Shown: piece by piece, positions 3,953 to 35,165 of the stretch
Layout: each line of letters opens with the position of its first letter
How positions within the stretch are numbered: position 1 is the stretch's first letter
Assembly (NCBI GenBank): GCA_036172245.1
Contig: JAYWIR010000018.1
Coordinates: 744,001 to 808,000 of the forward strand
Reading direction: 5' to 3'
From: Raillietiella orientalis
Taxonomy: Eukaryota
DNA length: 64,000 nucleotides
Notes under the pieces: generated by a model
What the model saw: only the letters and a program-made list of their open reading frames with translations
Told to the model about the DNA's origin: nothing
Databases searched by the model: none
Position numbers and translations under genes: made by a program

Positions 3953-5828
3953 ATCACCCGGATATGCCGGAGCATTTATTATTAAAGTTTTAATACAAAA
4001 TTTTATAATAAAGACGACAATAATGTTTCTATCGTGATAGAACACTTGGTTCTACCACGCTGGAAGACTTGCCATGAACCGGTACTAAGACCGGTGAGGT
4101 CCTCTCCAGCTGCAAAGGGAAAGGGGAAAGACAAACAAAAAGGAAAACAAAAAGAATGAAAAAAGGAAGGGGAATGTTTTTGGGGAAAGGGAGGGAATGG
4201 ATCACTGCATGCCAGGATTGGTCCTCTGCATACTGCTATGGATGCTGACAAATGCTGCTTTAGTGTTCTTTCGGTGGGGCCACCTTGTTGCGGTCTCCGA
4301 AAAGATCATCGTCCAGTGGATGGCGTCCCTGCCTTTTTGGCCTCTTCTTTTAGCGTTCCACCTTGCCAGGATACCGCGAACACCGCAGAGAACTGCAAGA
4401 GACTCAGCGGGGGGTAGGGCATCACGCATGAAGAGGTGCCTGAAAATGTCTTTCGGGTCGCCTACTGGAATATTGAGGATAGACGAGAGTCAATCCTAAG
4501 GTTCCACGAGGACGACACACTCTATCAGAAGATGCGGGAAGGTTTCCTTTTCGCCACACTCTGTAAAACAGGCATCTACATTCCCTAGTGTCCAGTGAGA
4601 GAGGCGAGATCTGCAGAGGATTCCCCAACGCAGGAATAGCAACGCCGTCTCTTGCCACTTCATCGGAAGGGTGACATTATCCCAACACGCTGGGGGCCAT
4701 TTCACCTCCTCCGGAGGTATTGCGAGCAGCTCGCCTCAGAGCGCAAGTCCTTAAGGCGGGAACTCTCGGGGTCGTAGCGTCCGCCAGCTCCCCAGTTGTC
4801 CACGCCTTTAACGATTTTTTCCTGCCTCCCATGAGTCAGGACACTTCCCACATTGTCTGTTCGTCGCTGTCCCTAACGTGTTTGAGGGGGGGGGGCAGCA
4901 CTGGGGCAAGAGGGGTAAAATAAGCCCACAGCAGCTTACGGTGATTGTTTAAAATCTCCTGCAGGGGCTGACGAGAGTATCTTCCACGTCGGTGGCAGTT
5001 GTAATCCGCCTCGCTCGAGTTGTTGATCTTGGCCCACACGGAAACCGACTCCTGAAGCCAGGCATTGCAGTTCGCGGGCCGGTAGGAGATCCACGTGTTC
5101 TCCCTCAGCAAGGCAACCATCTGTCGCACCTGATGACCACAATGGTTCAGGCGACTTTCGCATGCCACGAGGATCGAAGACAATCCTTCGCAACCGGTCG
5201 CTTCGCTGGCGAGGAGTCGTGCGGGTTCGCACCATGGAGTGATCCACAACTTCGCCGCAAGGGCGAGTCTTTGAAATTCGAGCCGCCGCTCTATGTACTC
5301 CAACGTAAGGAGGCCCAGTCCACCGTCCCTGCGTGGAGCGCACAAGTCTTTCAAGCGGACACGGGACCTCCCTGTGCTCCAAAGGGCATTCCTCAGAAGG
5401 CCCCCGGTCCATCTTTTGATGATGGGCGGGGCGGGGCAAACAAAAAGTAAGGGGCGAAGGAGGGGGGCCACGAACGCGTTCCACATCGCGGCCCGTTCCT
5501 GCAAGTAAAACTTGCCATTCCGGAACGGGCCGATCGCCAACTCCACCTTTTGGAGACGTGGGACCAGGTTTCTGCAAAGCAGAAGTCTCCCAACGAAACG
5601 CCAAGGTACTTGATGTACCTGTCCGTGGGGATCCCCACGCGGATCCAGTCCGGCAGTCCGGCCCACGCAGTATTTACAGGAACTATCGTCGATTTCTCTC
5701 TGTTCACCTCTAGGCCCGTCCCGCGGTGCAGCAGCTCAAAGAAGTCTTCGAGCGCCGACCCTGGGGTGGACCCGGGGAGCAGGAGCAGAAGGTCGTCGGC
5801 ATAGGCCAACGGACAAGCAAGTGAGACG
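3953..5828 (-). mobile_element. 5'-truncated L1/Tx1-like non-LTR retrotransposon (RT YADD to 3' end) with candidate target-site duplication
   Basis: Reads LAYADDLLLL...GTGLEVNREKS...IKYLGV...RRDGGLGL...C..CGEKETFPHLLIEC with frameshifts, followed by a T-rich tract and the structured 3' tail. Flanked on the + strand by taagaaaattc (3942-3952) and taagaaaaattc (5829-5840). Confidence 0.9.
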
Positions 5829-6734
5829 TAAGAAAAATTCGAAAAGTCATCCGACCCAATCCAAGCTATATTAGCAAGTTTCATCTTAATAAAAAATCAT
5901 TTCCCTTTGGTTATATGAAATAAGAGTATTTCATCGAATCAGTTATTGCACTTTTAGTCTCCTTACAAATGTGCTGTGTGTCGACTTGCAATGAGAACTA
6001 TTTTCACGAATTTCTGACAGTCAATACTTTAATCTGAAGTAGGTATTGAAAACTAAAATTCTGCCACAAAAAATTAAACGCTTACGATTGCGAGATAGAC
6101 TTCAATTTTGGAATCCAAAATTACCATTTCGTTGGCACATAGTCAAAACAAACAAACAAACATAATCGGCAACTGCATGGAAAGGCATTTACGACGGCAC
6201 AATTTCGATATTTGGACACTGATCGCAGAAACTTGCCTGAAACGAAATTGCGAAATGGGAAAAATAACAGAAAGAAGTTGCAGTTTCAGTGCTACAAAAG
6301 CACAGAATTTTAAAAGAAAAAAAATACGCAAACAAGATTTAGGATAATACAAATGAAGTTGGTTAATCTTTGCAGCTTACGAGGCGTGCAAATTTAGCCA
6401 ATTTACGGAATTAAACGCTAGTGTATAATTAAGTAGTGAAATTTTCGATAATTGATCAACATAGAAGTTTTCTGTGTTATCAACAGAACATCTCCCTCTG
6501 TTTTGCGTGTAAAGTGTTGAAACAGCCATAAGCTCTCACGCCGGTGCTTCTCGACTTTGGCACTTGGTCTTTGTTCCTAGAAATCCTACTTTTAAAGAAC
6601 ATTCCTGTGGTACCAACCTACTTTTAAAAAGTTACTTTTCGATATAAGCGAAATAAGTTTGTGAAATTTCCTACTCCACACGACCTTTCCACGTGGTCTA
6701 TATTAGGTGGTCACATTGTGGCTACCAATAGGGG

Positions 6735-7912: not shown

Positions 7913-10900
7913 TTAAGATTGTGCTTTCAAAGCTGAAATTTTTGCCGTCAATTCCTCCAAGTTCTTGTTCATGACTTCCATATTTTCCTGGATGCTCTGT
8001 TGTATGTTATTTAATAGAACTTGATCATCCTGCAAGGACAGCTGAAGTTTCTGCTGAGTGAGATCTACCTGTTTCAAAGTACTGCTGAACAAGGAGGCTA
8101 CATCACTGTAAACTGTCAATACTTATATAAAGTTTACCTTGCTCGTGAAGATTTTGGAGTGTAACTAATCGATCTGCAATTAATGGAAGAGATGCACACA
8201 TCTCAGCACAGGAATTCAACATAGAATACATCTCCATCAACTGAACAAACAGAATCTTAGTAGATAATGCAGTAGCGTAAGTCTTACTTTAGTTTGTTTA
8301 TCAGCATCTTCAATGGATTGTTTATTTTCAGCAATGTGTTGGATATGTGAACCAAGCAGTTGCAATCTTCCTTCAATTAAGTCAATCTGAGAAGGATCAA
8401 GTAGAGTTAATTTGGAGCTAATTACAGATACAGCTCCCAAGAGGCTTCTGTGATTAGTGTCGATGGAAAGCAGATTCTGCTGATTCATATTTCATGCATT
8501 CATAGTTTTCCCTCACCAATGAATTGTCTGGTTCTCCAATTATTTTTTCCAACTTGCTTAAACGTTGCTCCAGAGCAACCAATGTTTCTGTTTGTTCTAG
8601 CTTTGCACACTCAGGCTTGTAACGAAGTTCATAGACAATTTTTCCTGATTCTTCATGAGTTTTCAGCGATTCTGACTGATCATCGCTTTTAAGTGCCTCA
8701 AGATGAGAAATGAGCTGACTGAATGAATGCATAGTAACAAGTAGCACTTAACAAGACAACCTTTGTTGTAGTTTTTCCTTACTGGTCAAGAATCCTGAAA
8801 AATCTGCATTTAACACTGATTGCAGCTGAACTTCCATTAACCGATTGCGCAACTGTTCTACTTGTTGATAGAGTTCAGAAGGGGTTTCATCTTGTTTATG
8901 GGAGTCTATCTGAAAATACTTCATGTGAAAATAATTCATACATGTCATGTTACTCATTGTATCCAATCTCAAGGCAAGTACCTATAACTTCGTGCATTAC
9001 CAGTATTCAAAGAAAAAAAAAAAAAAGATATAACCTTTTCTTGGGCCAATGCATGTAGAAAACCATCGATTTCCGAACGGAGCCTCTGATATTTTTCCAG
9101 TAAAGACTCTTGTTGAGAATTAGCAGTCAGTTCCACCTCGGTAGATCTGTGTAATGCATAAGTTAGTATCCCCATTTGGATTATGAACATCACACTCACA
9201 CTAGTAAACAATCAGGTTTTCTTTGATAAGTACGGTAAATACGGTAAAGTGTTAAATTTTCAAAGATATATAATCAACAAGTAGGCTAATACAGGCATCT
9301 TCCTGTTCATTGTGTCATTACAGTGTTTTAACTGCATTTCAATGTAAGCTATACTATGCAGCATCTTTGTAATCTTGATCAAATATGATCTTGCTTCAGA
9401 AATGCTAAGTTTGAAATCTTTTCCTGGACAAGTTGTGGCAAAATTGAAGCATTTTCATACCGCAAAACACTAAGATTACAGCAGCTGGTTTTGTAGCGGG
9501 TTCCAAATAACTCGGACCAAGCAGACAAATCTTAGGGTAAGTTCAGCAGATACGATAATTCCTTTAATACTAGTTCTCGAGTTCACTAAATTTGAAAGGC
9601 AATGCGTTCTAGGCACACATCTTGGTTATAATATAATAACATTCACACTACATAACTACTGCCAGCTCTTCACAACATTCTTATTCAAATTACATATGAT
9701 TAAAGGGTTCATGTTAATTTTAACTAAAATTACTTTTTGGTTTGCCATCTTCACACGTAATTAAAAGAAGAAAATTAACATTATCAGTTGAACAGACAGA
9801 CCTACTTTTGTGTGCCAATAATCGGAACTGCACTACTTCACAATTAGGCATGCATTGCTTCAATGTACGTACCATACCACTTTTCAAAACACAAATCTTA
9901 TAAGTCACTTGATTTGTATGAATGCAAGTTCCATTTGGGATTTTATATGTGCATGAGTATTTTTGACCTTCAAGTGAAACAAGTGTCCACTTGTTTGCAC
10001 CTACTATGATTCTAAATTGATTTTAGAAGCTCTTGCTTCTAAAATCGGTTTCAATATAATTCGATTTAGGATTCTTCTGTTGAATTTGATTATAAGCATC
10101 ATAAACATGATTTGCAACACATATTTGTGATGTACTTTTATTGAACTTCACAGTATTGAGCTTTGTTAACTGCTTAGAATTTGTTTCTGTATTATACTAA
10201 GTACTTTGGAGCATTAATCTTTTCTTCAGGGAATAGTTTTCCCAACAGAACTATCCACTTTCTCATTTTCAAGTTTTCTCCTGCAATGTTTTGAATTGTT
10301 TATTGTGGATATTTTGTGTGACCTTCATGATTAAAGTATCTAGGAACTGTTTTTTTCATCATCTTCAAGCTTTCGACAACTTCCTTAATTTTTTTTTTTT
10401 TTTTTGGCATACACTTTCACAGAGATGTTTTATTAATTCGAGATATTCTGTTCTAGATTTGGATGTTGCTGATTCCATGATTTCCTAATATTTCAATACT
10501 GCCTATTCAAAGTTAATTGTTAGTATTCTCATAATTGATTCTGGCATATTTTATCCAAAGTCTGCTTTGAACCATGCCATAATCTTTAAGGTAGTTAAAG
10601 CAATCCATTTTGATAACACCAAATTTTGCATCAAATGTTGCCATTCTGCGAATGAATCAATTTACTGAAAAAGTACAAACAAACGACTATAACAAACGCT
10701 CATGATCTAAAGCAGAGATTCATTCTGATTTTAATCTCCTCATTAGCAATACAATTCCAAATAAAGCCCATTATTCAAAGAATGTCACTAAAATTAGGAC
10801 TACATTGAAAAACAAACCAAAACCCAGACTTCAGGCACCATTCTGATCTTTATTTGGAAAAATGCATACAAAGTCTCATACAGAGTTCATGCCTACATAA

Positions 10901-13900
10901 TTTCTAGGCACACATTAATGATCCTGTAACTGCTGCTTTCTCCGATTACACCAAATAAATCATCTATTTCAAAGAGATATAATTATATATATACATGTAT
11001 ATAAACTCGAAAAACTTGTAATCTGCTTTAGCATGATACATTGTGTTACATTATTGATCTGCAATCTCTTTCACTTCTTACCTCTTTCACTGATGCATCT
11101 ATAGATGCTTTTATGCACTTCATCGTCCTTTATTTTGTCTTTGTGCTCATCTTAATTTTAATGGAAGCTAATTTACTAATGCTTCCTTATCATATAATCT
11201 TTATTTATTTGTTTATTTTTCTTCACTCTCTTTATTTCGTGCATTGTTGCACTGTTATTGATCACATGCCTTGCTTGCTTTTATTTCCTTGTGTTCAAAT
11301 CAAGCATAAGAGGTTAAGATCAAAAAAAGTTTATACTGTTTATTACAATAGTTCGAAATTTCATATCCTTTGTGGTTCTCCAGATTGAAGGCTTTGCGTA
11401 ATTTTTTTTTTAGTCTTACTTGATGCTACTGGAAAAGATGCTGTGGATTTTTTAAACAATCTAGGTTTACAAAGCAACTTCTGTTAGTTCACAGACTTTT
11501 TTCTAGAAAATTAACTGCGTGGAAAATTAACAAGGTGTGGTAATTTGCCATTCAAAGTTTTCTTGAATATTCGATTCACAATATGTTCATGTTTAAAAAA
11601 AATCTGCTGATTTATATTTCCTTTATGATTACAACACGCTATTATGAAAGCATATTTCCTGTTATTGAGAAATCATAACAAATCACCGATTATGCTAAGC
11701 TGTAATAAAAAACCAGTGTATCTGCAAACTGATTCTCTTCAGCCAAATAAGTTTCCTGGCAACATGTTTCTGAAGCACAACTCAACAGACCATCAAGAAT
11801 TTGTCAATTGAGAAAACCCATGACAAATCATAATAACAGATATAACTGATGTTTAAAGTGCCTTTGAACGTCAGTTATATGTGCAGGTCTGAAAAGCATA
11901 CAGTTGTACAAACAAATAACTTTTGATAAATAAAAATTCCCTATAAGTGAATACTAATCAACATAAAATAAATGCAAATGAACAAGCAATGAATAAAATG
12001 AAGAATTAGTGCAATAAATAAATTACTATAATATGATGCTAAAATTAGCATTGTTTGTAGGTGCTGAATACATTGCATATGTAATTCCGTTTTGACAAAT
12101 AATGCAGACATTGCTATGATCTAAAACTAATACCATGCAAAGGAATGGAAAAAGGTCATTAAGAACAAACAGATGGGAAAATTAAGATGGGGAATTCAAA
12201 AAACCACATGACCCAGAATAAGATTCATATGGTTTGCTCTCAATGGTTGATTTACAATTCTTCTTATCATTTCCTGATATATGGATGCATGCGAATTGCA
12301 ATCAAATAAGTTCCAGCCATTCCAATTGCCTTTTGAATTACATATTGCTTATTGACAATTACTTTCAAATCCTCCCCAAATACTTGTCTCACATCCTCTG
12401 TAATGTCATGTCATTGGCAATTTTGCATCTAACATATCCTTTCACTACTATCATGCATTAGTAAACTTTGCACAAAATAGTAAACCTCTCTCTAATAACA
12501 AACCACATTCCAAATCTCCTAACAAACTTTACTCACATTTCAAATCAAACATGATAATCATACATTCTCAAGTAGCAATATTGATATTAGTTGGTTTGTA
12601 TACACGAAAAAAAGACTTTATGGAACTGATACAACACTGTCCTCCAATAAAATAATACATTTTTAAATAACAGGGCTAGTTTTTGTTTCTGCCACAAACC
12701 AAATGCACGATTGAATCACATGAAACATTTGTTCAGCTTTACTTAAAAAGTGATTATAAATTATAATCACCAAAGTATTGAATACTCTGAATATCATGAA
12801 AGATAAGATAGTACAGTGTACAACAGTAAAGTGCTAATTTTCTGGAGAGAGAGAGAGAAAAAAAAAAACACTTTACGTGATTCTTCGCATATTACTTTTC
12901 AGAAGAAAACAAAACTTCAAATGATACCAAATGATTACACAAAAGATAGACTGTCACATTTTTTTTATAATCAATTGCTATGCTACAACAGAAATATTAT
13001 AAACAAAAATAAACATTCTTACTATTTATCAATGCAAACACTGGATATGCTTACTTGGAATTATATCCTCTCTTAACTTGGCTGGAAAGGTGATCTGAGA
13101 AATCCACCCCTGCTGAATCAAGCTTTTTATCTTTAAATTTCTCATACGCCTCTTGAGCTGTTATGTTCAAGTTCTCAACTGAGTCTGCATCACTGTGCTA
13201 GTTATGTATTATAACATATGTTAGAAATAAAAACCTACTATTAATCTTCAAAACTTCACATTTATTTCAAATAAAATACAAACTTTAGAATCCCTTACGG
13301 CACATAATGAACCAAAAAAATTTATAAGAATCTCCGAATAAATGTAAAACTCAAAGCTCTTTGAAGAAAATGTAGGCTCAAGTTATAAATCTTCTACTTT
13401 AAAAAATATAGATGACATTTGGAAAACCGGGAAATCTCGAGTTTTTAAATTACCACTAAACTTCCTTAGTTAACATCACACAGTAAAGTAGAATAATGGG
13501 CTGCAAATCATTACTAACTATGGCCAAAATGACTTACTGTGTTATAAATCAATGATTGGTCCGCCTCTGGAAGATCAAAAGTTTCGTAGACGTCGGGTTG
13601 ATCATAAGCCTGTAAATATACTCTCTAGAGTACATACTTCAGTACATGTTTATGCACAATATTCACATCCTTTCCCTATGTCCGAATGCAATTTTCGGTT
13701 ACATACATCTCTATTCAACGGTAACATTCCTAGATCTTAAAAGATTACCTAAATTAATGTAAGTGAAATATTTACGATCAATCAAAAAGGCAACCTTTAC
13801 AAATTAAGCTTAATGCAGAACAACCCAAGTATACATGCGTTGCAAACCGAAGGCAGATATTAATATTTCTAAATGTTAGGCTTACAATCCCTGGCAATCC

Positions 13901-13921
13901 AGTGTATTTGGGGTCAACCAT
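7913..13921 (-). CDS. DCTN2: Dynactin subunit 2 (p50/dynamitin), 9 coding exons
   Basis: Exons: 13921-13886 (MVDPKYTGLPGI), 13609-13538 (AYDQPDVYETFDLPEADQ), 13197-13055 (AYEKFKDKKLDSAGVDFSD), 9146-9035 (ESLLEKYQRL), 8909-8761, 8718-8517 (IVYELRYKPE...LEQRLSKLEKIIG), ~8479-8288, 8240-8138 (DRLVTLQNLHEQ), 8097-7913. Introns are GT-AG and phases are consistent. Confidence 0.95.
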
Positions 13922-14429
13922 TTCCTATTCTTGCTCCGAATAAACAAAGAGTCTTTATCTTGCACACAACATCAAAACGATTATGTTTTACACTATGCAC
14001 ACGTTCTCATCTGCGGGGTCTGGCATTCGTGGACGCACACATTTATTTTGCTTCGATACCACATAGGATTTTCAGATTTGCCTTTATGAAATGCAAATGG
14101 TTCAAAGCAATCGATATCTTTCGATGCGAGTTCAAGACAAGTTCCGTGGACCCTTAATCTGCAAGCTCAGTTATTTGGCAGATTAGAAAAGTCCTATGCA
14201 AAAAATAGAGAAGTAGAAAAATCGAGACTGGGTCAAATCGCTGCTCCGTGAAAATGTCACGAAACCATGCCCAACATGCAAGATGGTCGACAGATCGTTT
14301 TGCAAAATGTCCTTCTGCACTAAGGCTGGAGTCTTGGGTTGATTGCAGTGATTGCTGCCGTTCCACGGCCAGAACGGCTGCGTCTCGATGTTGCAAAAAG
14401 ACCGAAATCCCACAAGGAAACAATAAGCG

Positions 14430-14443
14430 GTTGCCGTGGAAAC
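14430..14443 (+). promoter_or_regulatory. RFX X-box-like motif in the DCTN2 / BAF-like divergent intergenic region
   Basis: GTTGCCGTGGAAAC is one mismatch from the common X-box GTTGCCATGGAAAC and lies 180 bp upstream of the ATG at 14623. Confidence 0.5.
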
Positions 14444-14622
14444 GACCCGAACCACACGGAATTTCCACTGATCGAAAAATTCCCTTATTTCTCGAGCATT
14501 CTTTGCTTGTTAATCGAAACGACCACGACCACAAATCTCATCGACGGTTTGCTCTTGGCGCTGCCAGCTGAGGAATCCTGCAAGACGATCGGTTTCATTT
14601 CGAGAGTTGGACGCAAGAGAGG

Positions 14623-15000
14623 ATGGCAGATTTGGAGGTTTTAAGGAAGATCGAATCCCAAGTAATGATGTTCCCACGAAACAGAACAATAATTTCCTCG
14701 AAAAAGTTAGCGGACTTCCTCGAATACTCTCGTCCGGATGACCCGGTGGGAAAGATTCCAGGAATGAATCGGCAAATGTACTATGCAATGTCGCAAAGGG
14801 GAATCATGAGACTTGAACAAGTGTATGAAATATTTTTGCGATCCAATTACAAGCTGGGAACATTCATCCAGCATCTGGTGGGAAGGATCGGCAGGACGGG
14901 ACCAGATTTCCTCGAAAGAGTCAACATGATTTTTCTGTCTCTGTTCTATTTGCACCTTCGCATGGAATCTCGTCAAAGACGAAGAAGCATACGCTTCTAA
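14623..15000 (+). CDS. Divergent barrier-to-autointegration factor (BAF/BANF)-like protein, 125 aa, intronless
   Basis: SKKLADFLEYSRPDDPVGKIPG...QRGIMRLEQVYEIFL...TFIQHLVGRIG aligns without gaps to remembered human BAF residues 4-68, with 16/65 identities (S4,K6,D9,F10,P19,V20,G21,G25,R37,G38,V45,F49,L50,F59,L63,G68). Good start context (AGGATGG) and AATAAA at 15005-15010. Confidence 0.75.
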   Translation: MADLEVLRKIESQVMMFPRNRTIISSKKLADFLEYSRPDDPVGKIPGMNRQMYYAMSQRGIMRLEQVYEIFLRSNYKLGTFIQHLVGRIGRTGPDFLERVNMIFLSLFYLHLRMESRQRRRSIRF

Positions 15001-15039
15001 CCGAAATAAATTCTTCGCGGTTTCCTGCATTCTTGGTGA

Positions 15040-16250
15040 TTGTGCGCGAAGGGAGACACCAGTGGGTGTTTCACACCCTCGCCACGAGTGCCGACCGCCT
15101 GAATAATGTCTGCATCTACACTCGACGAAGAAGTACTGGCATCTAGATTCTCCATGTCAGTTTAGAGAATTCCAGGACCCCAATCATTGCCCTACTGCAG
15201 GACCGCCCTTTGAGTAAAAAGTAGAACGCACGAAATCTGGACTCCATGTGTATCATACATGTAGCCGGAAGCAACAAGAGATTCAGGTGGTAGAGGGTCC
15301 TTTCGACGAAGGACCCTCTACCACCTTCCTGTCCTTTCTTAGAATTTCCTGACCTCGCCCTGCCAGTGTCCACTCAATCTCCGATCAAGCAGCAGGAAAA
15401 TCCCTCCGCAAAATGCAAAGTCGGTGCAAGGGTTCTGTTGCTCGCCGATGGGAGCGGTCGAGCAGCATGGACCCACTGTCGAGTCCCGCTGCTGACTCTG
15501 TATCGTGTCTTCATGAGCGCACTGTTTCTGTAATGGACTGAGAAACGTGGGAGGATGTCGGGAGCGAGCCCAACTCTAGAAGCTGTCCAAGAATCTCGGC
15601 CGAGACTGCGACGCGCCTTCCAAAGTCGCAGTTGCCTCGCTTCCATCCTGTCCATGAAGGATGAAAGTGAGGAAACTGCGGGTCCTCCCAACTGTCTTCT
15701 CACCTTCGGAGTCTCGAGCGCGTCACTCTGAAGCAGCTGCTCACATCCGGAGAGCGTGCAGATCGGGATCTCGATCTCGCGATTTGTACTCAGTCATTGA
15801 GCAGTTCCTCCTGAACTCTGCTTCGATGTCTCCACGATGAAAGGAATCTGCCTTGCCAAGCACCGACAGCAGTTTCGACGGGAAAGACACGGCTTTTCTA
15901 GGGTAGCGAAAGTGTCGGATCCAAGTCCTGAGCACGTGGAAAACCCACGCGTAGGGAGGCAGCTCGTTGCCTGTTGAAAAGATTCCGCAGAGAGTTGTTA
16001 CTCCTTGTGTGCTATCCTCGCAGACGCAAGCATCCAGCCTGCTTGCTGGATGAAGAATCTGCCGCTGGCGACGCGATCATCTATGGCAGGTCGGGACACT
16101 CAGCGTTCGAAACTGGGGGGCAAACGTAGAGAGGGGATGACCCCTGATTCCTCCGGAATTCGATCCCGATCTGCTACTCTTTCCGCCTGAGAAGACACAA
16201 GGACTCGAGCACCCGGAAGCAGAGAAGCAAGTTTGCAAGCGTTCTCCCGA
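15040..16250 (-). mobile_element. Decayed non-LTR ORF2 fragment (RT C-terminal half onward)
   Basis: GGIRGHPLS (like GIRQGCPLS) at ~16130-16160, LLSVLGKAD, and LGGPAVSSLSSFMDRMEARQL (like GGLGL); multiple stops and frameshifts. Confidence 0.6.
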
Positions 16251-16279
16251 AGAGTTCCACCTCGGCTTGCCGTCCGGGA

Positions 16280-16920
16280 CTGTGGGACTGGGATCGGCTC
16301 GATTCTCCAACCATGCACAATTTAATGAAGGCCTGCCAGGTCACCGGTTTGCAGACCGGCGCGCGGTCCACCACAGCAGCACACGGGAGAAGGTAAACAC
16401 AGAAAAAAAAACTTTGGGGTGTGTGGAAGGGATCACGTCCTGCTGGTGGCAGTCCTGTCCATCCTCTGTGGGATGCCGACAAGGTCTTGCTGGATATTTC
16501 TGTTCAGGTGGGTCTATCGCATCGCCATCCAGGATGAATTGGACGGTGAAGTGGATGGCATCCCTATTGCTATCATCCTATCGCATCGTCCTCCTGTTGC
16601 ATCGCTCCATGCAGAGACGATCCCACGTTGACAGCACAGGGCTGCCAAGGAGGCCGCTGGCCTAAGGGCGTCGCGAACGAAGAGTTGTTTTATAGCGTCC
16701 CTGTGGTTGCCTCCGGGGGTTCCCCGGGCAGTAGTAAACAGTTCCTGAGGGTCCGGAAGGCAACACAGTCCACCAGCAGGTGGAGGAGGGATCCGTGTCC
16801 CCGCAGCTGATACAATTCGGGTCTACACACACCCGCATCCAGTGATGCTATTGCCGCCGCACGAGTGACCCTAGTGCAGCAGGAATAGAACCAACTCCTA
16901 TCAATTCAAGTGAAGGGTGT
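16280..16920 (-). mobile_element. 3' end of the main L1/Tx1-like family (zinc finger, ORF2 end, structured tail)
   Basis: Colinear similarity with 4040-4700, 40060-40700 and 54680-55150; tail motif ctgctg-tggt-ggacc...ccggt-ctgcaa-accgg...tggcag on the - strand. Confidence 0.8.
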
Positions 16921-16929
16921 GGGGGATCG

Positions 16930-18880
16930 TCTCGAGGACTCGTTCTTGCAGCTTTAGTACCCATCCTTCTCCTCATGAATAGCCTGTCTTTTCTAGAGGA
17001 ACTCGCCGTGAGAAGACGTGGTACTCTTGTTTAGACTCAATCGTACCAGGTCGATCCTAGTGTGCCTCGGCAGACCGATAGAGGACTCCTTCACGTCCCT
17101 TGTAAGAGAATATCGTAAACTCCTCTCGTCAAACCCTTGGCAGTGAAGCCAGCTCCCTAGAGCAGATCATCGTTGAGGGTGACAAGAGCCGCATCGGGAA
17201 ACTACTGGACGGTTTGCAGCTAGGAGGGGATCGAGACAGGGTCCATGTTGCCCGAGGATATATAACCTTACCTTCAGATACAAGGAATGTCAAGTTTGAA
17301 AGCCGTGTATGTGGAGTTCGTAAGAAACCTCAGCGACTCGGAGTTAGGTCCGGCGACCTCCGAGAGCTGAGGAAGTTCGGCGGCGGCAATGAATGTGGCG
17401 ATAATCTACTGTCGACTAAAGTTATGTGTAAGCGTATGTAAACGGGAGGAAGGTGTTCCCTGCCTCTGAGGACAAATCGCATGTGATCCACCTGAGAGGG
17501 GAGGGGACCACTGTCGACGTATCCGAGGACGTGGTAGTGATCGAAATCGTCAAAGTTCGGCACTGTTCATACAGTATGTGGCAAAAGAGCGCCACGCTGC
17601 CCCTTCAAAACATTTAACGGGATGATCCCGGCACGTGTAATCACAAAGTTCCTCCTGGTTGTGTCTCAGTTGCGACCACCTCGCCGAGATCCTTAGGAAC
17701 ATGAAAACGAAGGAGGTGGTGGCTTCTCTGCTGCTCTAGCCTCCGTCGTCGGAGCTTCAATCCGCCGAGATTCCGCAGACAAAACTGCGATCGTAGAGGC
17801 AGGCGACGTCCCGTGAAGGGGCGAGATCCTCGGGCGGTCTCCTAGGAACTTAATGGACGTGGTCAAACGTGTCCAGGAACACTGGGGGGCAACGTACTCC
17901 GGAAGCAGGTGCGGCAGGGTTTCCCTTTCCCCGCACCTGGCACAGTTCGGGGCCGCACTTCCGCTGGTCCAGCGGTGGAGGCACGAGTTGCATAGGATGT
18001 TCCAGTGCAGCAGTCACAATGCAGTCCTGCCACTTCAGAGGCAGCACTGAGTTGTCCAAGAACGGCGCGGGGATCTGGATTTCTTCCAACGGGATCCCAA
18101 GGAGGCCCGTCCAGCGAAGAAGGGCGGTGCTGGGCGGAAGAGTCGGCTAGCTGATACGCGCTATCCAGCATCCCTATTGCTTCTTTATTTTCCTGCGATC
18201 TCACAGTTCATTTCCTATCTTGCGGGCTGATGGCTGTCTTGGCCACCCCGCAAGGGCTACAGCATCGCAGCATGGGGGTTTTGCTGAGCCCGCGGGGTCT
18301 TCCTCGGGCAGTCCATCTTCAGCGAACAGGGAGCGTAATTGGAACGACGCGAAGAGTTGCGCGATGGTGGAATCACTGAGAAGTTTCGATCTCGCGCTCC
18401 TGCAGGAGGCACACAACCTCTCCCTGCAGAAGATTCTCGAGATCAAACAGTTCTAAGCAGGAACCCTTGAGGTGAAATGCGACTGGAAGACCTTCCCTCT
18501 CCCATTCCCAAAGAGGGAATCTGCATTCATTTCTGCCGAACGAGTGCAGATGCAGGCATTGTTCTAGTGGTCGGCACTCTTGGCGAGGGTGTGCTCCACA
18601 AGTCACTGATGTCTCCCTTTGCGCACAATCATGAAGGATGCAGAAAACTGCAAAGGACGAGTGCCCATGCTTTCAACCAGACGTAAGCGAGGTCGAGATC
18701 TGGGTTACCCCACTTCTTTCGATTCTGTCTCTGGTGGAAGAACACGATTGGATATCCTGCCGCCCATTGAACAGGAATTCTTGGCGGAAGGAATCACCGG
18801 GAGCGTGGAGGCGTGTAGAAAATCCAACCCTCCCGAACAACGTCACCATTGGTCGTCTGTGAAAACTCTCCCTTGCAAGG
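16930..18880. mobile_element. Mixed L1-like fragments: ORF1 remnant (+, ~17200-17750), zinc-finger piece (-, ~17850-18070), APE endonuclease piece (+, ~18330-18660) joined to a post-RT piece (+, ~18690-18880)
   Basis: FDLALLQEAH (APE LQETH motif), GIVLVVGTL...FAHN, then IWVTP...EEHDWISCRP, which matches LWITP...ENTWISYRP at ~5080-5250. Confidence 0.6.
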
Positions 18881-18899
18881 ATACTGGATGATGTTAGGC

Positions 18900-19930
18900 T
18901 GCTTTCCAAATCCCCGCGGTCCAGGCAACAAGCGGATGCGAATCCAGGAGTTGGGGGACATCCGTCCCCCAGAAATCAGAACCTTAAAGCCATAGGACGC
19001 CCCTACCCTACGAAAAAGACACCGGCAACAGGAAGCGTGTCTGTTAGAAAGAACTCCACTACAGAGAGATAGAGTTCGTGCGCCCAAACAACCCCCATGT
19101 CGGCGACTTATCAAACAAGGTTTCCGTGACAACCAAGCTTCGAGGAAAACCAGCCAACGTCGAAGCTCGTCTTAAAAACCACAACAACTATGCGTGGTCC
19201 AGGGAAGCCAAGAAAAATCTACTCCGCATCATAAGAGAAGACGATAAGACACCAGTGCCCTCCAGGAAGATGCCCATCGTCACAGGGATGACATTGTCAA
19301 TTCCCTGGAGGACGGAACCACGATCTGGAGGAGTGACTTACCGCTAGACTCCCAGAATAGACTCCTGATGTTCTATCACGGAGGAATCCTGAGCGGGTCT
19401 AGAATGAAACATTTTACAGGAGCAAGACAAGATGAGGACTGCAGAGCATGCGGGGATGTGGACACCAGACTTCACGTCTTGACCTACCCCACGATCCATC
19501 AAGACTGGCAGACTGTGAAAAGGGTCATAGGGCAGCAAAACTACTCACCAACAGAAGTCCTAGCCAAGATGTTCCCGGGTTACAACCCCATGGTTAGGAT
19601 GACCGTTGCCCTATTCATCACCGCCATCCTCATAAAATGGTAGAAAATGAGGAACGCCAGCACGGCCGCATCTTCCGTGGAAGTCCTGAAAGCGGTTATC
19701 CGGTAAGAGATCGGCATAAGGAACCGTGGCAGAATGCCGGCCTGGACTTATCGATACATCTAGAAAAGGATCGAAGATAATGCTCAGGCTCAATCAACGC
19801 CCAGTCCACCCTAATGCAGAACCCCAGTGCTGTGACTCCTAGTTAATGAACTTTCAAGAATTCTAAGTGACAGTGAAATGAAAATCGAATGAATGAGTAT
19901 GTAGTGTGAATGTAGAAGAAAATAAATTTA
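18900..19930 (+). mobile_element. 3' part of ORF2 of a second, less GC-rich L1/Tx1-like family
   Basis: DEDCRACGDVDTRLHVL zinc-finger remnant followed by ...ILIKW*KMRN (IWxxRN motif), and AATAAA near 19921. Confidence 0.65.
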
Positions 19931-20128
19931 CCTCACTCCTTGTGGGACTTGGGGAAAATAGAAGCTGGTCTTAAAGGAAGTTATCGTTCAGGAAATCTTT
20001 TTGCAAAATTGTAGCGAAAATGTTCTTTGGTTCTTTTCACCAAAAATGTTCTTTGGTTTCTTGTTACACATTTTACTATGCTTCAAGGCTGCCCATTCGT
20101 TGCACACCCGCTGAAAGCAGTCTGCTGC

Positions 20129-20802
20129 ATGAGAGGACGGAGGTGCGAGCGGCGAGTGAGGCTTCAGAGGTGTCGACCGGCGCCAGTCAGCTGGAGGGGG
20201 AACGAGAGCCACTGGCGTCGGAGGGAAACGGGCAAGAAGAGGAGGACGACCTGGAGAGCGAGGACGAGGACGACGACGACTTGGAGGATGAGAAGGCGGT
20301 TCTGGTGCTCGTCCCTGATCGTACCACCGTTGCCTCGCGCCTGCGTCCCCAAGGACGAAGAGGCGCGGGAGTGGGAGCAGTACCTGGCCACGTCCGCCTT
20401 CCAGGACGCGTACTATGCGCGCTTTTCGAGGTCCTGAGGACCGGCCCAAACTTGTCACGGGGTACCCGTACGTCTTCTGCGGCGTCCAGGCCAAGGCGAA
20501 GCTGTGCATCGACTGTTCGGAAGAGATCATGGACCCCATGAAGACGGACATGTTCCAACCGGAAGAAGATGCTGCTCGCGCGACATCTCCTGGAGGACGA
20601 GGTGGCCAATGTGCTCGAGCTCGTCATCACCCAGAGGACCAGGGTGAAGCTGGGCAACAAGATAAGGACGTCCGACCCCAGCATGGTGTATCTGCCCGGC
20701 ACATGGTTCGGGAACCTGGACCAGGTGCGCTACCTCAGGGGCACCATCCGATCCTACAAGAGGAGGCTGAGGGTCCTGCAGAAGACGCGGAAAAAGCATT
20801 GA
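20129..20802 (+). pseudogene. Frameshifted GC3-rich orphan coding sequence (acidic N-terminus, CxxC, basic C-terminus)
   Basis: Coding-like codon usage passes through ORFs 20020, 20027, 20415 and 20569 in successive +1 frames; no family recognised. Confidence 0.55.
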
Positions 20803-21174
20803 GCGGCGCGCGCTGGGATGCCGGGACCACCCGCTCCTGAACCGACCAAGGGAGTCGATCCTCAGCAATGCACCTAAGATAGGGAGTAGCACCTCCCACG
20901 ACGCCATCACGCGACGGGCTGCGAACCCGGCGATATATATATACATGTATAAATCGCTAAAAGTTTTTTTTTGTTTGCTGTTTGCCTCGACAATCAAAAG
21001 GATCGCCTGCTACTTAATTTAAAATGAGGGAATACCGAAAAAGAAAAAACAGATATGAAGTCCCATATACAAGGGACTGCTTACACATCATGAAATGACG
21101 GGATCTATGTATTTACCAAAACAATAGAAATTTAGGCGTTTTCACGTAAATGTTTCAAAAAGATGTATGTCCAT

Positions 21175-24100
21175 TTATAGGTAGATCAGAGATTTTTTAT
21201 GCAGGTTTAAAATAGACTCTGCTATTACATGGGCAGATTCTCGTTGATATCCACCACTCGTTACCATCACTATCGGTATATTTCTCGATTTTGCCATTTT
21301 AAAAACCATTTCATCACGACTAATAACTCCTCGTCTTGAAATCTGCAGTCCTCCAATAGGATCCCCTTGTAATACATCAGTACCTGCATTGTAGAAAAGG
21401 CAGTGACAAGGGAACTTATCCAATGCTGACTCTAGATGTCTAAACAGTTTCTCAGGTCAAAATGCTACACAAAGTCTCACATTTCCAATTTACACAAGTA
21501 CTCAATATCTGTGATCTGCGGCTCAAGAACCACATTTTTTTTAATGGCTTGTTTGGCTTCCGTGTCATTGGGATAAATCGATCCGTTGTACATGTCCAGA
21601 ATGTAAACTCGTTCATCGTTCAAAAAATCCCTTTCATGTCCATTGCCCTGAAGCAGCAATCATGACATTACAAATGAATCCAAGTCATTACCTGGCAGCT
21701 CCTAAACAATGTTCCCAATTCGCAAAATTTAGCACGAATGGGTTCAAATCATAGCTATAAAACGGAATTACTGAATAAAGAACATTATCAACAAAAAGTA
21801 TGCTATTAAACCAAGTGGAATAGAAAACTGCTGCGACCAAAAATACGATTCACACTTACCTCCTGGACGTTCTGAAACAAAATGAGTTTAACATTACGCT
21901 AATTCATTACTCAAGAAGGAAAACTGGTTTAAGCCTAAAGCTCAAATAGAAAACAACTACGACAAAAATGCATATCGGTGATTGGTCTATCAATGCAGCA
22001 CCTGTACATTTACAGTGCTTGGACTTATTTGGAAAATTAGGGATCCTTCCCATGCAGATTAAGCAAAAACGATTGCTACAAATGAGACTACAAAGTGGAT
22101 CAAAGTGGTTCGGTGAACTCAGCGAAAATAAACTTCATCCAAGACGAATTGAACAAAACAGGATCTCAAAATTGTGGAACGTATGATGTGTGGAGCAAAG
22201 TATCAAGATATCTCAATAACAGGAATGACAGCCATTACAAAAATATTTTGTAACTCCAAATTTCGTCTTTCAAAACACAACCGATTGATGCAATTTTCCC
22301 TCATCCGATGCACACAAACGCAAATCAATCTTTCTGACCACAGTCTATTTGAAGGCGAAATGCTGTAAACAAAAATGTTTTAATTCTCAAGATGGGCCCA
22401 CAAACATGTGGAAATTTTAGAAACAAACGCTTAAAATCTTGTGCTGCAAGTTGCACATATGGGGAAATGTTGTAAACTATCTCTGCACTATCATGACAAT
22501 ATGCGCACTAACTTGAAAAAAATCGAAAAATCATTTCATATGTAAGGTCGCCAAGCAATCCTAAAATACCAATCACTTAAAAATGAGAAAAAGAAAAACA
22601 ACACAAAGGTACATAAAATGAAGCAAACAAGGAACCATACACAAAAAGCGCCATTCCATTGAAGATTAACGAAGGACAGATTCCAAATGAGGAAAATTAT
22701 GTAACATGGAGGAAGCAAAATCATTTAAACAAGAACTGCATACTATGAACCTGTTTATACTTCCAATCATTGGAATTTAATATTCATTTGTTATCAAATA
22801 TTTTGTCTACATGATTTCTGAAAATGGTGCCCTTTGATTTGGATTTAGAACTCATGATGCACATGAGAATTTTGTATCAGTATACACATAAAAAGAAAAG
22901 CAGGTTTGTTTCAAATGCAAAATAACCGTAATCAGTTTCTAATTTTACAGGAAAGTATCCACATCTTTTGAAGACATAAGTCCTGTACACTTTATAGATA
23001 AGGACGGTATGACTCGAGTCTCAATTAAAATGAAGTTTCCATTTCCAGTTTCTAATCCTACAGATACTATAAACACACAATTCATAGCAAAATGACAACA
23101 GTTGCAGCCAAATGATGCTCATTATCCTTGTTTTTCACTTACATTAACTTTATGCATCTTTTTTGATTACATGTATACAAAAACACATATTGGCAAATTG
23201 ACTCGGATTTTCGTTTTGTATTGGAAACAAACAATTTCAAATGGTGTTCTCTGTGCATTATTTAAAAGTTGGCATTTATTAAAAAAATTCCAGAATAATT
23301 ATAAAATACCTATTATTATTTTTTCAATACTTTTCAAATATAACAAGGACCAGGATCAAGCCATTTATCTGGTAATGTGCCTTAGGGGATTTGTACGAAT
23401 CAGTTTTTCAATTTGAATAATAGCAACAAAAATGTATAAATCATGTACAAGAAAGCAGATGTGAATATCATATCTTGTTAATGTAATGTAAACATCCAAA
23501 ATTTTAAAAAATGAAGATCAAAAAAACAATACTATAGTGATCACTAACTTGATGGGCATCTAAATCAACAATCATCACTGTTCGAACAGCATGAAAATGA
23601 TGAAACAAAAAACGAATGCAAAGGCTGATATCTGCATACACACAAAACCCACTGCCTTGTTCTGAAGAGCAATGATGGAATCCACCACCTATATTGATTG
23701 CCCATCCTCTTTCTATGGCCAACTTGCCAGCAAGAACTGTCCCTCCTACATGATATCTGGAGAAAAACAACAAAGCTATACTTTTTTTTTTTTTTTTTTA
23801 CAAACTGCACTATAATAAGGCACTTTTCATTAAACTATCCTTCAAAAGATATAGAAAAAAATTCAAACAGATTTAAAAGCACATGCATTTGAAGGACTGC
23901 TTTCTTTGCTTTATTAGGTGCTTTGCTGCATATACATGTGCAATAATTTAAAGCATACACACTTAGCAGGAAGCTTTAATTAAAATGTCACTTTATTTTT
24001 GAATATTTTTATCAAAGAACAAATTGAATTATTCATTATGGTAGTACCATATGGTATGGAATTAAGTATGAAATAACAATGAGCTTAAAGATAACTAGAA

Positions 24101-32948: not shown

Positions 32949-35165
32949 ATGTTTGAGAAGTGTTTGCTACATGCACAGGGTAGGCATAAATTTGATTTTT
33001 GTTTTGGTTCTTTTGGGGATAGAAGGTATTTTAGGAAATGTCATTAAACTTGATTGTCCAGTGTTTCATGAATGTCCTTATATCTGTGTCCATATGTAGG
33101 TGTGAAGTCGATCACATTTGCCAAACTTTTGTATTGCACAAGAAGCAATATCTCAAAACCTCAGATTACTACCCATTATACTATCCATCCAAGAGAAAAT
33201 GATCCTCGATGGAAAGGTCAGAGTTTTGATTGTTGTATATGGCTTCAAAGAGTGTGAACAATTTTGCTCCTTAATAGATGTGTGTATGGAGCGTCAAGTT
33301 GATCATGCAGATGTAGTTATTGTTGGAGGTGGCCCTGCTGGTCTTGCAGCTGCCATTAGATTACGTCAATTATGCAAGGAAAAAAACCATGATCTGCGTG
33401 TTTGTGTGTTGGAAAAGGCTGGTGAAATTGGTGGACACATCTTGTCTGGAGCCTGTATTGAGCCAAGAGCTCTAGATGAGTTGCTGCCTCAATGGAAGAA
33501 TGAAGGTTTTCCATCACATTCTCCAGTCACAAAGGATAGCTTTGCATTTCTGACGCAAAAGAAAAGGATCCCTATACCTATTTTTCCAGGTAAGTTGTTA
33601 TTCTGGATTGCAAGCTTATGAAATTTATAGAAATTATTGAGTAGGAATGCCAATGCGCAATCATGGGAATTATATTGTACGGTTAGGTCAAGTAGTACAT
33701 TGGCTTGGAGTACAAGCAGAAGAAATGGGTGTAGAATTGTATCCAGGCTATGCAGCTGCTGAGATTTTATTTGATTCAGAGGGCCATGTCCAGGGTGTAG
33801 CCACAAATGATGTGGGTATATCCAAAGATGGCTCACCTAAGTCAAACTTTGAGAGAGGCATGGAACTGCATGCACGCTGCACAATCTTTGCTGAGGGCAC
33901 ACATGGCCACTTGGCTAAACAACTGATAAAGCATTTCAATTTAAGGAAAGATCAACAACCACAAACCTATGCTATTGGATTGAAAGAGTTGTGGGAAGTG
34001 TCACCAGAGCAGCATCATGCTGGCTGCGTGGAACATACTGTAGGCTGGCCTTTGGTTAGGTTCTGAATTTTTCTGTTCTGTTATTAAAGTCTGTTTTCAG
34101 AATCGACATACATATGGAGGGTCATTCATTTATCATTTACAAGATGGTGATCAAAAGTTGGTGGCATTAGGATTGGTCATTGGACTTGATTATGCTAATC
34201 CTTATCTGAGCCCTTATGAAGAGTTTCAGCGTTTCAAACATCATCCTTACATTTCTCAGATTCTGAATGGAGGACGTAGGTAATCTTTTCTGTTCCGTTT
34301 GCCTAATCTTTTCCTTTCATAGGATAGGATATGGTGCTCGTGCTTTGAATGAAGGAGGAGTACAGTCTTTGCCACAATTAGTCTTTCCTGGAGGATGCAT
34401 TATTGGTTGCAGTGCAGGGCTTATTAATGTTCCCAAAGTCAAAGGTTCTCACAATGCCATGAAAAGTGGCATGCTGGCTGCAGAAAGTGTATTCGATACC
34501 TTATTGAAAGTGAGACAATTCTCTCATATGGGCAACATTCCTTTTCCAGGATTCTCAAAAGTCCATCTTTCCTGTTTCTTATGAATCCCGACTACATTCT
34601 AGCTGGGTATGGAAAGAATTATGGAAAGTGCGTAATGTTAGACCATCTTTTGGCTCGTATCTGGGTTTATATGGAGGTTTATTGTATACTGGTGTCGTTT
34701 ATTCATTATTAAGGGGTCGAGAACCATGGACCTTTAAGCATAAAGGTAAGGAGGAGCATGTTGGTTTTTTTCTAGTGTTGCGAAGGTGCGGACCATGAGC
34801 AACTGCAGTCCAAAGATGTGCACAAGCCTATTGAGTATCCCAAACCTGATGGCAAGATCAGTTTTGATTTAATGACTTCTGTGGCACTTACTGGAACTAA
34901 TCATGAGCATGATCAACCACCACATCTAACGCTTAAAAGTGATGATATTCCTGCTTGCCAAAATTATCCAAGATATGAGGGTCCAGAACAGCGATTCTGT
35001 CCTGCTGGCGTCTATGAATACATTCCAGAACATGGAACTGTGCACTTTACAATCAATGCCCAAAATTGTATACATTGCAAAACTTGTGATATCAAAGATC
35101 CCAGCCAAAACATTAACTGGGTTGTGCCTGAGGGAGGTGGTGGCCCTGCTTACAATGGCATGTAA
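32949..35165 (+). CDS. ETFDH: Electron transfer flavoprotein-ubiquinone oxidoreductase, mitochondrial, 8 coding exons
   Basis: Exons: 32949-32979 (start least certain), 33100-33216 ([17 protein letters not shown]), 33278-33589 ([12 protein letters not shown]), 33645-34054, 34101-34279, 34323-34509 ([11 protein letters not shown]), 34550-34745, 34786-35165 (RFCPAGVYE...[16 protein letters not shown]...GGGPAYNGM). AATAAA at ~35177. Confidence 0.97.

Follow-up and report, generated by a model that had tools for sequence, protein, structure and literature searches.

The window analysed here is a stretch of 64,000 nucleotides (nt) of contig JAYWIR010000018.1 of Raillietiella orientalis, and an open reading frame (ORF) at positions 14623..15000 on its plus strand may encode a small protein derived from BAF (barrier-to-autointegration factor), a chromatin protein of small size that animals conserve exceptionally well. 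We give even chances to the reading that this ORF is a real, single-exon and fast-evolving BAF-derived gene that is transcribed divergently from the promoter region of DCTN2. An earlier note on this DNA had pointed out the likeness to BAF. The likeness was recovered independently of that note by Pfam, by the neighbours found with a protein language model and by profiles built from natural BAFs, and it is the only family signal that the ORF gave. The signal is consistent and specific to the BAF family, yet every accepted BAF, viral ones included, gives a far stronger one, and it is borderline whether the similarity exceeds chance.

As the earlier note had stated, the ORF runs without interruption from ATG to TAA, encodes 125 amino acids (aa; the coordinates include the stop codon) and opens in a good start context (gagaggATGG, with A at -3 and G at +4). 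The note had also placed an AATAAA 5 nt after the stop. The hexamer is present at 15005..15010 (+), but the spacing is 4 nt; it is the single plus-strand copy from 13939 to 19921. A codon table compiled from 676 codons of neighbouring host exons gave the ORF a log-likelihood of -7.8 in its own frame; the two remaining frames scored -54.9 and -24.0. Its score ranked fifth among 54 ORFs, with ranks 1 and 2 taken by training exons and rank 4 by the ORF's own antisense frame. GC content at the second codon position (0.35) resembles that of host exons (0.34), and at the first position it is 0.46 in the ORF and 0.54 in host exons. This periodicity is consistent with coding.

SAM_BAF (PF02961) was the only Pfam family to match the ORF at E <= 10 (14.6 bits, E 0.049), and the match spans 65 of the 88 profile positions without gaps, with ORF residues 25-89 lying on profile positions 3-67. 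The expectation that a Pfam check would place the ORF in the BAF family was borne out in one respect, SAM_BAF being the sole family, but not in the other, the score lying below the family's gathering score of 25 bits. To obtain natural BAFs for comparison, metagenome contigs were scanned with the degenerate motif G-I-G-x10-G-F-D-K-A-Y, which yielded 37 loci; 36 of them encode BAF-like sequence and one (L018) is a chance match. We aligned 26 of these loci and added two viral BAFs (L038 and L039, from a profile scan of viral contigs), giving a set of 28. The loci left out were four with an upstream ATG (L002, L009, L010 and L034, 99-107 aa), three that run off their contigs (L004, L012 and L026), one truncated (L003), one partial (L019), one of 75 aa (L029) and the chance match L018. 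The motif itself had 0 matches in the viral contigs. Against the profile of 26 BAFs the ORF scored 4.8 bits, a value matched by 22 of 20,000 shuffles, and against the profile of 28 it scored 5.9 bits, matched by 10 of 20,000 composition-matched shuffles. It ranked first with both profiles among the 511 ORFs of at least 60 aa in the window, and also, with the 28-BAF profile, among the 2,420 ORFs of at least 15 aa, where its lead was narrow (7.6 bits, the runner-up having 5.6).

A feature search of the ESM Atlas pointed to the same family. The first match scored 0.94 with 172 shared features and a recognition value of 2811, and BAF clusters topped the list, accounting for 16 of the 30 matches. 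In the calibration of this search, first matches of at least 0.9 were obtained by 4-10 of 100 shuffled proteins, 29 of 100 of those reached the recognition mark, and at least 170 shared features were seen in only 1-2 of 10 chance matches. The ORF that overlaps on the opposite strand (107 aa) had no Pfam match at E <= 0.05, and in the ESM Atlas search it reached a recognition value of 1625 and gave no usable match.

Chance or descent

Many results weigh against a BAF-derived gene. The ORF was picked for its likeness to BAF in the first place, which means that tests on its sequence do not stand independent of how it was selected. Its Pfam score falls short of the cut-off, and five natural BAFs scored with SAM_BAF reached 91-95 bits (the two viral proteins and a divergent metagenomic one) or 137-154 bits (canonical ones). 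Since even divergent and viral BAFs score this high, the ORF lies far outside the known spread of the family. It is 15.5-22.6% identical to the 28 BAFs, and it retains 4 of the 16 columns that are invariant among the 26 metagenomic BAFs, of which nine were fixed by the fishing motif and others, namely Gly47, Leu50, Phe59 and Trp, were not. In hhalign the probability was 3.1% (P 0.014). Weak Pfam matches also occur elsewhere in the window. Among 50 other non-genic ATG-initiated ORFs of 100-160 aa (the 54 in the window minus the BAF-like ORF, ETFDH exons and a reverse-transcriptase piece), one had a match at E <= 0.05 (YxzE, 0.041), and six stray matches with E values of 0.027-0.098 fell on four of 109 small minus-strand ORFs. 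The codon score of the antisense frame (-8.1) is as good as that of the ORF, which leaves the strand undecided by this measure, and GC content at the third codon position, 0.51 in the ORF versus 0.34 in host exons, is unlike that of the neighbours.

Searches for relatives belong on the same side. A word search of 5.8 billion proteins returned one candidate, which did not score, and no relative. An exhaustive phmmer search of 1.84 billion representatives returned one match at E <= 0.001, of low complexity, in which 13 stretches of a repetitive 1029-aa protein match the Arg-rich tail of the ORF only. In the PDB, phmmer found no BAF at E <= 10; its sole row, an unrelated chain at E 1.1, was taken as chance. 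The fold models likewise lend little to the BAF-derived gene. AlphaFold, run on the single sequence, gave a poor mean predicted local distance difference test (pLDDT) value of 54.1 for the whole protein and 53.5 for residues 22-114. With these two models Foldseek found no match at E <= 0.001, and BAF was not among the 23 matches of the trimmed one. VIA-align gave BAF Z scores of 3.4-3.5, below those of unrelated globins (4.5).

BAF is a small all-helical protein, and both low-confidence models do have helices throughout the core; the trimmed model predicts six, at ORF residues 26-34, 41-44, 50-58, 64-73, 78-88 and 96-113. In the Foldseek list of the whole-protein model, BAF chains ranked 2, 9 and 19 (E 0.5-2), the second-ranked being 6ghd_A (E 0.5, 21% identity over 86 columns). 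Taken together, these poor single-sequence models do not single out the BAF fold. A homodimer prediction with two copies of residues 22-114 scored 0.02 against a mark of 0.32, which amounts to no answer and carries no weight for or against dimerisation.

Other searches gave negative results of their own. No relative of the ORF was found in metagenome contigs (353 pattern matches) or in viral contigs scanned with the ORF (22 pattern matches), and a word search with the divergent metagenomic BAF L025 found the L025 protein itself only. Searches of published full text brought up no BAF paralogues of such divergence from invertebrates, although this does not prove that the literature has none.

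These results bear on the possibility that the ORF arose by chance and has no BAF descent. It would then be an open frame of the GC-richer DNA close to the promoter, upstream of DCTN2, where an upstream antisense transcript might cover it, and its P-V-G, P-G, R-G, F-L and F would be accidental. All alignment statistics are sub-threshold, the scores against our own profiles standing beside 5.6 bits for the next ORF, and neither a BAF fold nor a relative was recovered. Of the window's 54 ATG-initiated ORFs of 100-160 aa, three lie within 14254-15030, one of them the antisense ORF, so the length of the ORF is in itself no evidence; when many windows are scanned, some look-alikes would be expected. 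On the other side, two kinds of method, a profile hidden Markov model (HMM) and language-model features, pick the same family out of thousands, the ESM Atlas values are rarely reached by shuffled proteins, and the antisense control fails in that search. Moreover, the match extends over almost all of the domain in a single register without gaps, and the Kozak context and the single AATAAA right after the stop would be extra coincidences. On balance we regard a chance ORF as rather unlikely, and we continue below with the reading of the ORF as a BAF-derived gene.

Register and residue states

The gap-free alignment to BAF proposed in the earlier note is reproduced by Pfam, by hhalign (which covers ORF residues 25-71), by both of our own HMMs and by MAFFT, all of which set ORF residues 25-89 (14695..14889, +) in the same register on BAF positions 3-67. 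Residues 2-89 of one natural BAF (L001) correspond to profile positions 1-88, and its residues 3-90 to residues 2-89 of PDB 1ci4_A. Profile numbering therefore equals human numbering, so that subtracting 22 from the number of an ORF residue gives that of its human counterpart. In this shared register, all the residue equivalences listed in the earlier note hold.

Near the N-terminus of the core, S26 and K28 lie under Ser4 (Ser in 24 of 27 BAFs) and Lys6 (Lys in 26 of 27), which are kept as the note had said, and E34 stands in place of Ala12 (Ala in 13 of 27). A degenerate helix-hairpin-helix occupies ORF residues 41-57 (14743..14793, +). In this region P-V-G and I-P-G are retained: P41-V42-G43 falls under human positions 19-21 (Pro in 13, Val in 25 and Thr in 19 of the 28 BAFs), and G47-M48-N49 falls under G25-I26-G27. 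G-I-G is found in 28 of 28 BAFs, although the motif demanded it in 26 of them and not in the two viral ones. The residues at human positions 32 and 33 are mostly basic in the set (Lys in 9 of 28 and Arg in 22 of 28, respectively); in the ORF they are Y54 and A55. R59-G60 lies under positions 37-38 (Lys in 19 of 28; Gly in 28 of 28). The glycine equivalent to Gly47, present in 28 of 28 BAFs, is replaced by Glu69 (codon GAA, 14827..14829, +), the substitution to which the note had drawn attention. Further along, T80 takes the place of Leu58 (Leu in 21 of 28) and H84 that of the Trp at position 62 (28 of 28). Given a score below the Pfam cut-off, G-M-N at the G-I-G hairpin and Glu69 at the Gly47 column, the ORF cannot be filed as a member of the BAF family; the N-terminal Ser4/Lys6 pair, by comparison, is retained.

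Several of these positions have known roles in human BAF. According to one study, G47E impairs homodimerisation and not DNA binding, L58R abolishes LEM binding, A12T lamin A/C binding and K6A DNA binding (PMC10769424). The helix-hairpin-helix is assigned to human residues 20-35, and T2, T3 and S4 are given as phosphosites, in a second source (PMC13443024).

If the gene is real, its protein would keep a small helical BAF-like core, with the core hydrophobic positions, the Lys6 and Ser4 equivalents, P-V-G and P-G. It would have lost the second glycine of the hairpin, the two basic residues that follow the hairpin and Gly47 of the dimer-interface helix, which is now Glu, together with Leu58 (the LEM contact), Ala12 (the lamin contact) and the Trp that became His84. 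Judging from these residue states, it might be a small nuclear, chromatin-associated protein that has lost both the bridging of DNA by a canonical homodimer and the docking of LEM proteins. The notion of a monomeric or non-bridging protein transfers the phenotypes of single-residue mutants of human BAF to a protein of about 20% identity, and is put forward as an analogy. The Arg-rich tail could serve nuclear import or non-specific contact with nucleic acids. A more specific picture, which we think quite unlikely, is that of an invertebrate BAF offshoot independent of BAF-L, in which the fold and the phospho-regulated N-terminus were kept, replacements affected the glycine of the dimer interface, one half of the DNA hairpin and the residues that contact LEM domains and lamin, and an Arg-rich tail was gained. 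With respect to canonical BAF, such a protein might be a monomeric cap or a heterodimeric poison; possible settings are the remodelling of chromatin in the germline and defence against foreign DNA. The germline role that the earlier note proposed is speculative.

Two parts outside the core, the N-terminal extension and the Arg-rich tail, are as the earlier note had described them. A 22-aa N-terminal extension (14623..14688, +) precedes the core; a helix is predicted with low confidence at its residues 4-15 (AlphaFold), and further in-frame ATGs occur at codons 15 and 16. ORF residues 90-105 (14890..14937, +) are a possible counterpart of the last BAF helix, aligned by MAFFT only, and overlap the predicted helix at 96-113. 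The Arg-rich C-terminal tail, RMESRQRRRSIRF, is encoded at 14959..14997 (+) and ends in SRQRRRSIRF. The leader in frame upstream of the ATG (14575-14622, LQDDRFHFESWTQE) scores 0.1 bits to BAF positions 52-68, the L-K-K-D-E…F..W stretch. This likeness is probably due to chance, the alternative being the remnant of a second BAF-like unit.

Genomic surroundings and origin

The DCTN2 (dynamitin) gene lies at 7916-13921 on the minus strand, where nine co-linear ORF pieces match Pfam Dynamitin. Its first coding exon (13886..13921, -) encodes MVDPKYTGLPGI and is followed by a GTAAGC donor. The gene stands head-to-head with the ORF and is split by introns, in agreement with the earlier description of an intron-bearing neighbour; between its 3' exons the introns are about 60-90 nt long, and the 5' introns reach kilobases. 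The note had further suggested that the ORF uses the DCTN2 upstream region, and the geometry fits this suggestion. The start codons lie on opposite strands at a distance of 702 bp, and the 701 nt between them (13922..14622) form a candidate shared promoter. From 14001 to 14750 GC content is 0.42-0.48 and the observed/expected ratio of CpG is 1.09-1.25, against a CpG ratio of 0.15-0.43 in the intron at 12001-13250.

The window as a whole consists of AT-rich, CpG-depleted introns (GC content about 0.30-0.34) and GC-rich (0.5-0.6) blocks of decayed retrotransposons. The blocks lie at 4000-6000, 14000-21000 and 36000-64000, and CpG is depleted in the introns and not in the blocks. Weak RVT_1 matches were found at 5393-5896 (-) and 61545-61874 (+), and several knuckle-like ends of the form C-x2-C…H-x4-C occur in the blocks. 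A repeat edge at 15013..15124 begins 12 nt past the ORF stop and opens about 6 kb of GC-rich transposon debris. A copy of it in reverse orientation lies at 18541-18655 (about 112 nt, 81-87% alike), and the pair look like the ends of two oppositely oriented copies of one transposon family; both copies encode a similar peptide in one frame (…GEGV.H..…SPFAHNH…CRK…). A 43-nt near-perfect palindrome (93%) at 15285-15326 gave weak microRNA-like Rfam rows far below the gathering scores. Rfam searched over 13000-16000 returned four matches at E <= 1, all far under their gathering scores and all outside the ORF. Beyond the debris, the minus strand carries the 3' end of a gene for a histone deacetylase (Pfam Hist_deacetyl; exons 21175-23797), which we take to be HDAC11-like. 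Exons of ETF-ubiquinone oxidoreductase (ETFDH) lie at 33106-34066 (+). The best identity of an ETFDH exon to library proteins is 77%, with top matches spread across brachiopod, mollusc, arachnid and insect entries, which indicates that the library holds no close relative of the host.

These surroundings bear on how a BAF-like ORF could have come to lie here. One route is a drifting, still intact copy (a retrocopy or a segmental duplicate) of a divergent BAF paralogue elsewhere in the genome that landed beside the DCTN2 promoter. The ORF is intronless, and some natural BAF genes seem to be split (L003, L025 and L029); its third-position GC content departs from that of host exons as given above, and it adjoins the 6-kb debris block. 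Retrogene marks were looked for at the flanks, where there is no A-run after the AATAAA and we recognised no flanking direct repeat and no target-site duplication, the repeat from 15013 being unrelated, and a search of 13000-22000 found 0 direct repeat families of at least 30 nt. The lack of introns is the one feature that would speak for the retrogene origin proposed in the earlier note. The frame is also fully intact and has a good start context, which argues against a copy of this kind, and we hold such a copy to be improbable. An old pseudogene is likewise unlikely, because about 20% identity combined with an intact, in-register frame would be at odds with neutral decay. As for the split BAF genes, L003:161-319 (+) stops after its V-L-G-Q stretch, and L029:571-795 (+) and L025 begin at about residue 16; such breaks suggest introns in the genomic copies of some organisms.

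A second route is that a mobile element or virus brought in a BAF-like gene, which would then be cargo and not a host paralogue. Two IMG/VR viral contigs (L038 and L039) encode BAF homologues, the repeat begins close behind the ORF stop, and a Pro before the hairpin Gly is common to the ORF, L025, L038 and L039, the residue being Ala in 25 of the 28 BAFs. Nevertheless, the ORF shows no greater affinity to the viral BAFs, its identity being 15.5% and 20.2% with them and 16.7-22.6% with the cellular ones, and the scan of viral contigs with the ORF found nothing. No viral or transposon gene adjoins it in frame or in the same orientation, and the reverse-transcriptase debris is fragmentary and of mixed orientation. 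The ORF is also single in the window: 14000-15012 has no second copy at the DNA or protein level, which sets it apart from the window's repeat families. Because the ORF and 600 nt upstream of it lack a second copy in a window full of repeats, cargo of a transposable element was given low weight, and import by an element or a virus is in our estimate very unlikely. We therefore keep to a host BAF-derived gene next to DCTN2 in the comparison that follows.

Comparison with known BAF-type proteins

Few BAF offshoots are known, namely vertebrate BAF-L, cichlid banf2w and viral copies. Compared with BAF/BANF1 itself (PF02961; PDB 1CI4, 2EZX, 6GHD and 7ABM), the ORF is alike in the size of its core, in the gap-free register over positions 3-67 and, according to the low-confidence models, in being all-helical. 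It keeps the Ser4 and Lys6 equivalents, P-V-G, Gly25, Gly38, Leu50 and Phe59. It differs in its identity of 15-23%, in scoring below the Pfam cut-off and in having G-M-N for G-I-G, Glu for Gly47, Thr for Leu58, Glu for Ala12 and His for Trp, and the 22-aa N-terminal extension and the Arg-rich tail are particular to it. The natural BAFs that we fetched are 57-78% identical to one another, the viral ones 41-46%.

The two viral proteins resemble the ORF in being divergent, in lying outside the canonical animal gene and in the Pro before the hairpin Gly. They are 91-aa BAF homologues, 41-46% identical to canonical BAF, encoded on IMG/VR contigs of about 39 kb each (L038:1001-1273 and L039:983-1255, both +). 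Unlike the ORF, they score 91-93 bits with Pfam and keep G-I-G, Gly47 and a Leu at the human-58 column. The metagenomic L025:571-795 (+) is a further divergent BAF-like ORF of 75 aa, 45% identical to a canonical BAF, with a Pfam score of 95 bits, an extra IMS_HHH match and the hairpin V-P-G-I-G; the record series to which it belongs also yielded L010, a canonical BAF. Other small helix-hairpin-helix or SAM-like domains stand further off. Pfam Cdd1 and HHH_5 are weaker language-model neighbours of the ORF (0.84-0.85), ranked under the 16 BAF clusters, and neither matched the ORF in Pfam at E <= 10.

BAF-L, at about 40% identity, is far closer to BAF than the ORF is. The two would nonetheless be of the same kind, BAF-L setting the precedent of a BAF offshoot with altered surfaces, and they are set side by side by description and not by sequence. 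BAF-L/BANF2 is reported not to bind DNA, to be enriched in testis and to bind histones H3/H4 and protamine (PMC8877947). By analogy, the ORF may act as a BAF offshoot of the BAF-L kind. Any such resemblance would have arisen separately, since no animal in the library has an ETFDH more than 77% identical to that of the host animal.

Were the ORF to prove a chance one, it would mark the limit of what sub-threshold similarity and language-model neighbours can tell unless expression or comparative data are added. A real gene would show the fold's tolerance of change at about 20% identity and would amount to a natural separation-of-function allele carrying substitutions of the laboratory type. If the proposed losses are true as well, it would be a natural experiment on which surfaces of BAF can be lost. 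Set against BAF, BAF-L and the viral homologues, the gene, if real, would be a new variant within a known kind of BAF offshoot.

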